Source: an uncultured bacterium
Lineage (GTDB): Bacteria > Babelota > Babeliae > Babelales > Babelaceae
Reading direction: 5' to 3'
DNA length: 64,000 nucleotides
NCBI GenBank assembly: GCA_963722385.1
Contig: CAVRKK010000002.1
Span: 1,152,001-1,216,000, forward strand
Below, in pieces: positions 21,001 through 24,000 of this stretch. Made by a program: the position numbers. Each line of letters begins with the position of its first letter. Position 1 is the stretch's first letter.

Positions 21001-24000
21001 CTATATGCTTGTTTCCACGTGAGCGCCAGAGCGAGCAGGTGGTGTGCGTTGGATACAATTCAATATCATGGGCAAAGATATCTGCTTGCTGTGAAAGCCC
21101 GTACGTGATGGCTTTTGCATGACTGAGGGGAAGAAGCGAGCGGGCATGTTCATCATCGTGACAAATGATTGCTCTGCCATAAAAGGGCAGATTGCTGAGG
21201 AATTGCCTGAACGTTGCTTTAACGTCATCAAGATTGGTATAGGTATCAAGATGTTCACGGTCAACATTGGTTACGATGGCTATCGCCGGCGAGAGTCGGA
21301 CCAATGATCGATCACTCTCATCAGCCTCAGCTACCAAAAAGTCACCTCGGCCCAAGTGCGCATTGGTTGAGATACTTTTTAAGTGGCCGCCAATAATAAC
21401 GGTTGGATCATAGCCTGCTTCCATAAGCACGTGTGCTACGAGCGATGTCGTGGTTGTTTTGCCATGGGCACCTGCAATGGCGATGCTGTACTTCATGCGC
21501 ATGAGCTCTGCGAGCATTAATGCTCGCGGGATTGTAGGCAGCCCTAAACTCCGTGCTCGCATAATTTCTAGGTGGTCATCCTTGATATCAGAAGAATATA
21601 CGACGATATCAATTGAAGTATCATGGCATTGGGGAGTATTATTGCCCTTAGATACCGGACAGCCGAGCTGGGTCAAATCAACGACACTTTTTTGTTCAAG
21701 ATCTAGGTCGCAGCCCGAAATAATATATCCTTGATGCTTAAGAATTTTGGCGATACCACTCATGCCGATACCACCGATTCCGACAAAATGAATATGAGCT
21801 TTTTTATTGTACATGTTTTTATTGGTCTAAATGGCGCAAATGTAATGGTTGTCAATTAAGTGTATACCAGATTTTTCATGTGCTCAACAAGCCTTTTAAC
21901 GCTCACGATGATTTTGAGGGCTTAAGACCCTGGAAAGCGTTGCCGTGAAAAAAAGGATAGAACATCATTTTCCTGAATTGAATAATCCTTTAATGTTTTG
22001 TTATCGTCTAATACTATACCTTTAAAAGCAAGCCGTTGGGCATCTACGGGAACCTCCTGAAGGCCTTGTATTATTTGCTGTGCTTCGAGAGCTTTTTTGA
22101 CCATGTTAATGGTAGCTGATGGTGGTATATCTAATTTTAGCTCAGGTCCCTCTATATATTTGATAACAACGGGCATTGATAAGGCCGGGCTGGCGAAAAA
22201 AATAATTAATAATGACAGAGCGAGAAAAAGCTTCATCGCAATTCTCCTTTTTTAAACTTATGAGATAAATACAAAATAATATTATCACGTTGAGCATTTC
22301 AGCCGCAATGGTTTTGATTGCGCGAGATCAATATATTTGCTAGCAGGCCTTAAGCTCTACAGCGGTCTTAAAAAACCGTGGGCAACAATCTGCTACCTCT
22401 CTTAATCAACGGCCTATTTTTAAGAGTTATTTTCAAGATATAAGGATGTCACCGGTCAATCGTTGCATAAACTGAAGTGATAGGGCGCTTTGTCTGATAG
22501 CATCTCAATTTTAGACCTTGACCAATGGTATCGAATTATGATACTATTGAGAATATAACAAGAGGGCGTAATGAACAATAAACATAAACGTACTCTAGAA
22601 AGCATCTTTAGGCTACCTACACAAACCTCTATTAAGTGGAAAGATGTTGAATTATTGTTTATACATTTAGGAGCCAAAGCGACTGAAGGAAACGGCTCGC
22701 GAATACGTGTGATACTAAATAAGGTTCCAGCAAACTTTCATAGACCGCATCCACGCCGTGAAGCAACTCAAGGTGCCATTGAAGCAGTACGTAGGTTTTT
22801 AAAAGATGCAGGAGTTAAAAAATGATTGAATATAAAGGATATAAAGGAATAATTACCTACGATAGTAAATTAAAAGTTTTTCATGGGGATGTTATAGGAT
22901 TGCGACACGTTATCACCTTTGAAGGAACAAATCCTGAAGAAATTGAGAAATCTTTTAAAGAGGCTATCGATGATTATCTTGATATGTGCAAACAAGAAGG
23001 TATAAAGCCTGAAAAAACTTTCTCAGGAAAGTTCATGATAAGGATTTCTCCTAATCTTCACGCTGAACTTTTTAGCGCAGCGAAACAAAACAAAAAAAGT
23101 TTAAATTTATATATAGCAGAGGCGTTAAGCGCAAGACAAAAATAAATATCTATGCGCTACTAATCTAATGATTTTATACTTATCGTAAAAAAGATATTGG
23201 CTACTTCTCAAGATTGTAGTAAATGCCATCTACGAGGTAATCGCCAGGGTAAATTATTTAAGTGTCCTCATTGTAGGCACGTTGATCATGCTGACGTAAA
23301 TGCTTCATTCAACATAGCTATGCGTCATGGGCAGAGATCAATTGGACGCAGACAGAGTTGCGTTCAACGGGCTCACTGAAATCCCTAAAAGGGCTACGCT
23401 GCTTGAATGACCGCGACCCTAGAACCTCCGGCTTTTAAGCCGGCGTTATTCAGTCGATGTATCCCACAGCGTTCCTCAAGCTATAGTACCCATGCTCACC
23501 TTGATATACCATATGTGGAAAGGTGCTTTGTAGAGTTAGTCTGGAGCAGCCACTCGTGAGACGCTGTGTTTTACTGCGACATATTAACCGTTCAGGCTCG
23601 TCCGAACTTGGGTTTTCTTTCAAGCGACCTCAAACGACGAACCAGGGGCAATAATCTGCAACAGAGATAGCTGTGTCCTGTTTTACATAAAATATTGCTA
23701 TTAGTATGCAAAAATTGTTATAATTTACGCAAGTTGGGTAATCATATCTTACCTCAGCATTGGTTTTTCAAGTACATTTTATTGTCATATTAAATAGGAG
23801 TAATCATGAATAAATTTGCGAAACTGCTTATTTTAGGTTTAATTCTAGCGAGTATCGGAAATCTTGCAAAGGCTCAAGAAAAGGCTATGGATCTAGCTTG
23901 GCATACGCTACAAGAAACATACAAAAAAGAGGGAATGAAAGGAATTGCGACCGATGTCATTAAAGCTTCCTGGGACTGGACCAAAAGTTCTACGGTCGTT

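Follow-up and report, generated by a model that had tools for sequence, protein, structure and literature searches.

A Signal-Led Ubiquitin-Fold Protein without Gly-Gly in a Babelota Genome, One of Many Such Genes across the Phylum

Introduction

Does a bacterium of the Babelaceae (Babelota) export a ubiquitin that cannot be conjugated, and what might such a protein do? The question is raised by g01345, a small gene in a stretch of 64,000 nucleotides of an uncultured member of the family (positions 1,152,001 to 1,216,000 of contig CAVRKK010000002.1, assembly GCA_963722385.1; "the window" below). An initial annotation proposed that g01345 is a non-conjugatable ubiquitin decoy and that it is exported, with a protease encoded by g00780, to jam host ubiquitin signaling. 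Heavy secretion and ubiquitin-system genes are already known for the phylum, as passages of PMC6561590 and PMC4378268 describe. We examined the gene, its surroundings, its relatives in Babelota and other bacteria, and the protease.

Results

Leader, fold, and C-terminal end of g01345

The open reading frame, the profile matches, and the alignments all agree with the layout first given for g01345, i.e., a leader, a ubiquitin domain, and the C-terminal end RQRFPGS (Table 1). The protein matches the Pfam ubiquitin profile PF00240 with 52 bits (cut-off, 25.4) and Rad60-SLD with 35 bits. Its identity to ubiquitin is 37 to 39% in most PDB matches and 37 to 40% to eukaryotic ubiquitin, with 29/72 positions identical to the animal type. 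The proposed ubiquitin fold is borne out by an AlphaFold model (beta-grasp, pLDDT 87), which was computed from a 37-row alignment and tilts toward ubiquitin because 18 of those rows are viral ubiquitins; a single-sequence model was poor (pLDDT 51.5) and gave no fold match at E ≤ 1e-3. The alignment-based model superimposes on ubiquitin with a query-normalized TM-score of 0.81 and an rmsd of 1.8 Å and, in a second fold comparison, with Z 15.2 and an rmsd of 1.5 Å over 77 aligned residues. Ubiquitin chains rank above Dsk2, Rad23, and SUMO-type folds, and BfUbb (8hm3) is among the matches, at 30% identity to the 8hm3 chain. Judged from the profile match and the modeled structure, g01345 is a member of the ubiquitin fold family PF00240.

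Table 1. Features of the g01345 locus and CE-clan protease genes elsewhere in the genome
Feature	Position	Strand	Remarks
g01345 ORF	21922..22236	-	104 aa
Shine-Dalgarno-like AAGGAGA	22243..22249	-	From sequence; 6 nt before the g01345 ATG
g01345 signal peptide, Sec-type, residues 1-20	22177..22236	-	Heuristic call; ends A-L-S, then Met21; putative cleavage site
g01345 ubiquitin beta-grasp domain, residues 21-98	21943..22176	-	From profile, model, and alignment; Met21 = ubiquitin Met1
g01345 tail Q-R-F-P-G-S and stop	21922..21942	-	From sequence
Variable lower-GC island between murC and yidC	21820..34000	.	g01345, HicAB modules, transposase-like ORFs, beta-propeller protein
g00780	C2:508024-510303		759 aa, two CE repeats; outside the 64-kb window
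981-aa gene	C2:1114810-1117755		Intact CE domain; outside the window
Decayed CE remnant	C2:836219-836629		Outside the window

Retained from ubiquitin are K6, K27, R42, F45, G47, Y59, R72, and R74, and a 6-residue insertion after the helix extends that helix. Most ubiquitin-binding domains read the patch formed by L8, I44, H68, and V70 (passages in PMC7214410); the corresponding residues of g01345 are I/A/S/F, with Ala70 at the I44 site and Ser94 at the H68 site. The only chain lysines that remain are K6 and K27, while K11, K29, K33, K48 (now Ile74), and K63 (now Glu89) are absent. In the tail, R74 is followed by Phe-Pro in place of Gly75-Gly76 and then by 2 additional residues. A Gly-Gly concealed by a frameshift at the 3' end was ruled out, as the other two frames contain none. 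The whole protein is free of Cys. With no C-terminal Gly-Gly, an altered patch, and most chain lysines gone, g01345 is not a conjugatable ubiquitin (type I modifier). Conjugation inside the bacterium is also unlikely, because a ThiF/E1 profile search of the 93%-complete genome gave no match, with 11 of 14 controls above the cut-off. The UQ_con (E2) search of the genome had no positive control, and searches for USP, F-box-like, RING-2, and U-box domains gave no match, their controls being equally silent.

The leader is basic-hydrophobic, and g01345 combines several features of the BUbb class, namely, an SPI leader, a mature protein starting at ubiquitin residue 1 (by a heuristic prediction of cleavage), and no terminal Gly. 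The gene is single-copy in the genome. Three recorded contigs encode the identical protein. A second source yields a 97% variant in which the tail is unchanged and three leader substitutions reduce the hydrophobicity. Contigs from sequencing runs are identical over 22044-22237 (X1, possibly the source sample) and 22006-22156 (X2, a second study), which is part of the gene, positions 21926-22005 lying outside their coverage. A scan for promoters and terminators returned chance-level counts (4 vs 3.5; 1 vs 0.8).

A lineage-specific island and a Met-leading leader class

g01345 opens a stretch of lower GC (0.385 to 0.395, versus 0.43 to 0.53 upstream), and no partner gene lies beside it. The island is missing at the corresponding site of G009, a same-genus genome that is 91% complete, where a different gene follows murC and yidC lies about 2 kb off. 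A ubiquitin profile search of G009 found no match either, and g01345 is thus lineage-specific.

The leader of g01345 belongs to a genome-wide class of about 100 genes in which Met stands directly behind a small residue. This [AGS]-M pattern is found at residues 15 to 30 in 103 of 469 ORFs with a heuristic signal, versus 19 of 469 at residues 45 to 60; in other Babelota loci, the counts are 39/126 and 4/126. Many ankyrin proteins are in the class, and both intact CE genes of the genome (g00780 and the 981-aa gene) show the pattern too. No description of a Met-leading leader was found in the literature searched (subscription journals mostly uncovered). The genome has 2 secretins, 2 T2SSF genes, and 160 ankyrin matches, and passages of PMC4378268 and PMC6561590 infer that Babela and Chromulinavorax export their ankyrin and ubiquitin-system proteins by Sec/T2SS. 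However, the leader by itself says little about destination, since signal peptides are common in the phylum; they are present on 44% of Chromulinavorax genes (a passage in PMC6561590).

Ubiquitin-like genes without Gly-Gly recur across Babelota

The initial annotation counted ubiquitin in only 2 of 260 other Babelota genomes, which proved far too low. At E ≤ 1e-3, PF00240 matches occur in 22 of the 260, with 13 above the cut-off (23/261 and 14 when the genome itself is included), although the weak match in G051 seems spurious. A profile made from such ubiquitin matches reaches 31/261 genomes, 13 of them new relative to the PF00240 list; for most of the remaining 18, the finding is circular. 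The Babelota loci examined contain 51 distinct ubiquitin-like ORFs, none of which ends in GG; 44 are signal-led by a loose leader rule, a similar version of which is passed by 556 of the 1,450 ORFs of the g01345 genome. In one protein, from G144, an internal GG occupies the position at which ubiquitin ends, with the chain extending beyond the part read. The eight copies measured share between 56/72 (G232) and 18/72 positions with ubiquitin. Tandem ubiquitin-like arrays are found in G232 and G215, and in that of G232, fresh and eroded copies lie next to each other. No report on such signal-led genes of Babelota turned up in the literature searched, in which subscription journals were mostly uncovered.

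These genes include a diverged, ubiquitin-derived family that forms a clade (support, 100/99) and is present in many Babelota genera. Its N-terminal half matches ubiquitin in the PDB at an E value of about 1e-8, using an alignment that owes 10 of its 18 rows to earlier PF00240 matches, and the ESM Atlas gave this family leads below 0.9 only. In the free tree, g01345 falls outside the family, on a long terminal branch. We do not claim independent capture of g01345, since the AU test rejects neither a clade with the diverged family (p = 0.54) nor the placement of all 19 tested Babelota rows in a single clade (p = 0.36). Protein and genome searches found no orthologue of g01345, matches in the representative set being mostly polyubiquitins, and no viral relative was found.

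Ubiquitin modules in free-living bacteria

Outside Babelota, a GTDB scan gave at least 451 relatives among the 603 pattern matches listed. The best 79 of these loci (query aside) comprise 39 that are leader-led and GG-less, 4 with both a leader and GG, 21 GG-less without a called leader, and 15 with GG and no leader. In the 39, the leader is mostly joined at Met1, as in g01345. The best loci are close to ubiquitin, with a median identity of 67/72 (78 rows, L220 left out), and of 64 tails, 51 were scanned and 18 bear surface anchors, including autotransporter, SLH, IPTL-CTERM, dockerin, and T9SS types. There are also stand-alone forms (L202 and L219). Because free-living bacteria keep near-perfect copies on anchors, export of a bacterial ubiquitin does not imply action in the cytosol of a host. 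The literature searched (again with subscription journals mostly uncovered) held no description of surface ubiquitin in free-living bacteria.

g00780 and other CE-clan proteases

g00780 was initially described as a unique tandem C48 protease, with the expected His and Cys in the first copy and Tyr for His in the second. Our alignments agree on the two repeats and on these residues. Uniqueness did not hold, as the same genome encodes a second intact CE gene and a decayed remnant (Table 1). The protein scores 50.6 bits with RickCE_cat and 30.2 bits with Peptidase_C48 (PF02902; cut-off, 20.7), and its relatives in the PDB are OtDUB and RickCE. By sequence, g00780 thus appears closer to these than to the SENP deSUMOylases, so that of the deubiquitinase/deSUMOylase first suggested, a CE-clan deubiquitinase is what the alignments favor.

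Repeat 1 has H148, W149, D168, Q218/Q219, and C225 in the CE order, and H148/W149/D168/C225 align with OtDUB H76/W77/D96/C135 across the whole catalytic domain. Trp after His favors a protease over an acetyltransferase (passages in PMC7214410), and repeat 1 is probably an active deubiquitinase. Repeat 2 reads Y408/D428/C501, with Tyr at the catalytic His site, and has a 16-residue duplication near the Cys; it is predicted to be catalytically dead, with roughly even chances of a binding role. The repeats are identical at 537/627 DNA positions, and dN/dS between them is 0.38 over 208 codons, a pairwise value not assignable to either copy. On these comparisons, they are a recent duplication under constraint. 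The probable source of g00780 is the 981-aa gene, whose CE domain would have been duplicated. For this 981-aa gene, a metagenome contig carries a 913-aa relative (32% identity over 974 columns) that is full-length and leader-less, suggesting transfer followed by local duplication. The ESM Atlas returned no usable match for the middle of the 981-aa protein.

How rare are these proteases? C48 domains had been put at none of 260 other Babelota. At E ≤ 1e-3, PF02902 matches 6 of the 260 (7/261 with the genome itself), with 3 above the cut-off, two of which (G062 and G214) look like eukaryotic contigs. PF22179 matches 5/261 at the same threshold, those in G003 and G023 lacking a convincing motif. 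What remains of the rarity claim is the OtDUB-like subtype, which the query used found in this genome alone (1/261); the other Babelota having ubiquitin-like genes gave no OtDUB-type match. CE domain searches of protein collections returned this organism's genes only, and relatives of the repeats were found neither among viruses nor on plasmids. G241 and G149 have signal-led permuted C48-like genes, with Cys before His/Asp.

Discussion

Possible roles of g01345

We tentatively favor the reading that g01345 is a ubiquitin-fold binder, non-conjugatable and directed at a narrowed target in the host, a possibility that falls somewhat short of probable. Its fold, its leader, its loss of Gly-Gly and of the patch, and the recurrence of this architecture across Babelota are backed by the data. 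The leader used by the lineage for about 100 exported proteins would have been joined to Met1 of a ubiquitin reading frame. The leader would be cleaved before Met21, and the protein would exit by Sec and then by a type II/pilus-type secretin route or in vesicles, so that the mature form may arrive in the protist host. It can be neither activated by E1 nor chained through K11, K29, K48, or K63, and the Ala in place of I44 should keep it from titrating ordinary ubiquitin receptors. Engineered ubiquitin variants serve as inhibitors, and g01345 could likewise plug a single ubiquitin-handling site of the host, or a few, with a contact surface made of a basic face (R42, R72, R74, K6, and K27) and the uncleavable Phe-Pro end. 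Counting against a narrowed binder, these five are the only basic residues retained. Furthermore, the loss of the patch residues fits decay equally well, and no g01345 orthologue was found by which to gauge selection.

It is tempting to extend the narrowed-binder reading to the phylum, such that Babelota repeatedly turn captured ubiquitin into exported, uncleavable variants, reshaped to block a host E1, E3, or deubiquitinase. We consider this unlikely as a general account. The phylum-wide leader would leave Met (often Met-Glu) at the N terminus, Gly-Gly would then be lost, and copies with 56/72, 41/72, 29/72 (g01345), and about 18/72 identities would represent stages. The Met-leading leader would act as a host-targeting or host-stability signal, the latter on the idea that an N-terminal Met stabilizes proteins in the eukaryotic cytosol.

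Among the alternatives, the one that we weigh most heavily, while still finding it rather unlikely, is that ubiquitin is repeatedly captured into leader-bearing islands and that g01345 is a decaying relic with no selected function. The lineage-specific island with its HicAB and transposase-like ORFs, the long terminal branch, the missing patch and lysines, the fresh copies beside eroded ones in the G232 array, and the decayed state of the CE remnant elsewhere in the genome would all fit. However, 60% of the g01345 positions have changed with no stop or frameshift, the modeled fold and the ribosome site are intact, and the diverged family (100/99) persists in many genera. It is quite unlikely that g01345 descends from the signal-led modules of free-living bacteria and is an eroded periplasmic or surface protein, serving as a small, stable fold and unrelated to host ubiquitin signaling. 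In its favor, the 39 leader-led, GG-less loci among the best 79 mostly join the leader at Met1, stand-alone forms exist (L202 and L219), and a bacterial surface copy gives the top identity in the tree set (41% over 74 columns). Yet this 41% is not meaningfully above the 37 to 40% to eukaryotic ubiquitin, g01345 lacks an anchor or tail, and the free-living modules are conserved nearly letter for letter, which g01345 is not.

As for the decoy first proposed, the absence of Gly-Gly, the leader, and the fold all stand, and so does the non-conjugatable nature of the protein. A general decoy role is unlikely, because g01345 has lost the I44-type patch that most receptors read. The full proposal, in which g01345 jams host ubiquitin signaling together with g00780, or regulates g00780, now seems very unlikely. 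The two genes have the same leader type, close relatives of g01345 and the OtDUB-type protease are each found in this organism only, and Babela is rich in ubiquitin-system proteins (passages in PMC4378268). But that leader type is common to about 100 genes, the two lie 664 kb apart in unrelated neighborhoods, their co-occurrence is a matter of one genome with no OtDUB-type match in other ubiquitin-bearing Babelota, and K48 and K63 are missing along with the I44 patch. It is similarly improbable that g01345 is an antibacterial protein like BfUbb, directed against competitors within the same protist. It shares the BfUbb architecture of a leader, cleavage at Met1, and no terminal Gly (passages in PMC5705921), and 8hm3 is among its fold matches. 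Nevertheless, BfUbb and BoUbb require a disulfide at the C terminus as well as a SusCD importer (passages in PMC11467351), whereas g01345 has no Cys and is 30% identical to the 8hm3 chain.

Implications

g01345 is less special than first claimed. It is one worn-down case of a habit seen in many Babelota and other bacteria, and the phylum-wide series of GG-less copies and the Met-leading leader are most worth following. Characterized secreted bacterial ubiquitins act on bacteria, and for the terms looked up, a 2026 effector review (PMC13720258) yielded no passage on ubiquitin itself as an effector. Among strictly intracellular parasites, a family of GG-less exported ubiquitin folds would be a new form of interference with host ubiquitin signaling, and the series from near-perfect to barely recognizable copies would be a natural record of which ubiquitin surfaces are retained. 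If g01345 merely decays, the single gene has little weight, and what counts is the pattern across the phylum. g00780 takes OtDUB-type deubiquitinases beyond the Rickettsiales, with a tandem of a predicted active and a dead repeat.

Comparison with known systems

Several kinds of protein met here are already known, namely, the BfUbb-like architecture, CE-clan deubiquitinase effectors, and the permuted C48 proteases of Babela. BfUbb is 63% identical to ubiquitin, and its signal peptide is cleaved to ubiquitin residue 1 (passages in PMC3352274, PMC5705921, and PMC11467351). g01345 shares with BfUbb and BoUbb a leader, a single ubiquitin fold, the lack of Gly-Gly, and a location in a low-GC acquired region. 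Unlike BfUbb, it has about 40% identity to ubiquitin, no Cys, no I44, K48, or K63, a 6-residue insertion, and a place in the genome of an intracellular parasite. Both BfUbb and BoUbb carry a C-terminal disulfide, which the antibacterial action of BfUbb needs (passages in PMC11467351). PPIase binding and killing of related bacteria are further BUbb traits. With eukaryotic ubiquitin and integral UBLs, g01345 has in common the beta-grasp and R42/F45/G47/Y59/R72/R74; it differs from eukaryotic ubiquitin in the leader, the GG-less end, the altered patch, and the loss of most chain lysines, and from integral UBLs in having no fusion to another domain. The free-living bacterial modules likewise have the leader at Met1 and usually lack GG, but they are often anchored and near-perfect (median, 67/72), whereas g01345 is free-standing and eroded.

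CE-clan deubiquitinases are common bacterial effectors (passages in PMC13720258). Repeat 1 of g00780 shares His-Trp, Asp, Gln, and Cys with OtDUB of Orientia and RickCE of Rickettsia bellii (passages in PMC7214410 and PMC13720258), and g00780 differs from both in its Sec-type leader and in its tandem of a predicted active and an inactive repeat; the accessory ubiquitin-binding helical domain of OtDUB has no alignment in g00780. In the supplementary annotation table of PMC4378268, on Babela, "ubiquitin" occurs three times, and two of these entries are C19 hydrolases. Permuted Ulp1-like proteases, known from Babela massiliensis, resemble g00780 in being signal-led and C48-related, with some copies inactivated (passages in PMC4378268). 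In those proteases, the same source places Cys before His/Asp and describes fusion to an AAA ATPase, whereas g00780 has the normal CE order of His-Asp-Cys with no ATPase domain in Pfam, which sets it outside the permuted Ulp1-AAA group.

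Gene neighborhood and the large CE protease

The genes around g01345, which encodes a leader and a ubiquitin domain without Gly-Gly (GG), are listed in the table below. Genes resembling its 1118-aa beta-propeller neighbor also adjoin the two other CE loci.

Features near g01345, large CE protease genes, and tandem paralog arrays
Feature	Location	Remark
HicA-HicB pair	window 22571-23145	
Second HicB	window 24826-25203	
Several transposase-like ORFs	window 25622-28562	read by eye
1118-aa signal-led beta-propeller repeat protein	window 28673-32029	hydrophobic segment at C-terminus
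981-aa CE protease gene	C2:1114810-1117755	this genome (G000)
Relative of the 981-aa gene	L260:802-3543	metagenome contig
Four tandem leader-bearing paralogs	L041:4482-8604	Babelota genome G232
Four tandem leader-bearing paralogs	L244:2578-4627	Babelota genome G215

The 981-aa gene encodes a large protein in which a conserved, unannotated middle region is joined to a CE protease domain. The same architecture occurs in the metagenome relative (32% over 974 columns), which has no leader; its neighbors encode an MFS transporter and a PAS-type sensor. That the two share this large protein suggests transfer between bacteria. The strong C48 matches of two other Babelota genomes, G062 and G214 (L252, L253, and L259), are open-ended, low-complexity frames with a GC content of 0.50-0.55; they look eukaryotic, and host contigs within these bins are possible.

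Leaders and ubiquitin-derived proteins of Babelota

Across this genome, 103 of 469 ORFs with a heuristic signal have a leader whose small last residue is followed by Met, against a background of 19/469, and Met-Glu is the commonest form (54 of the 103). The same end was found in 39/126 cases from other Babelota loci (background, 4/126) and in 1/15 from non-Babelota loci. Our literature search found no published description of this pattern, which may be a phylum-wide export signal or host-stability signal.

A leader also precedes the ubiquitin-derived domain of a Babelota-wide family of ∼110-150 aa (L026, L007, L013, L015, L140-L150, and others). This domain carries an aromatic-rich insertion close to the I44 strand. 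The family resembles ubiquitin in sequence only over its first 45 positions, and 14 rows form one clade (support, 100/99). In the G232 array, two paralogs have a ubiquitin domain with 52-56/72 positions identical and adjoin eroded copies.

Ubiquitin beyond Babelota

A GTDB pattern search yielded at least 451 relatives among the 603 matches listed, of which the best 80 were read. At loci L157-L235, a signal peptide is fused ahead of near-perfect ubiquitin in Verrucomicrobia, Bacillota, Betaproteobacteria, Bacteroidota, and one archaeon. Anchors were present in 18 of 51 tails scanned (of 64). Eukaryotic contamination probably accounts for some of the rows that end in GG.

Among 80 viral ubiquitin genes (IMG/VR loci L046-L125), 18 lack GG. 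In 14 of these, a stop immediately follows the R74 codon; six of the 14 have no GT there, which rules out an intron start at that point. The viral ubiquitins ending at R74 resemble clipped ubiquitin.
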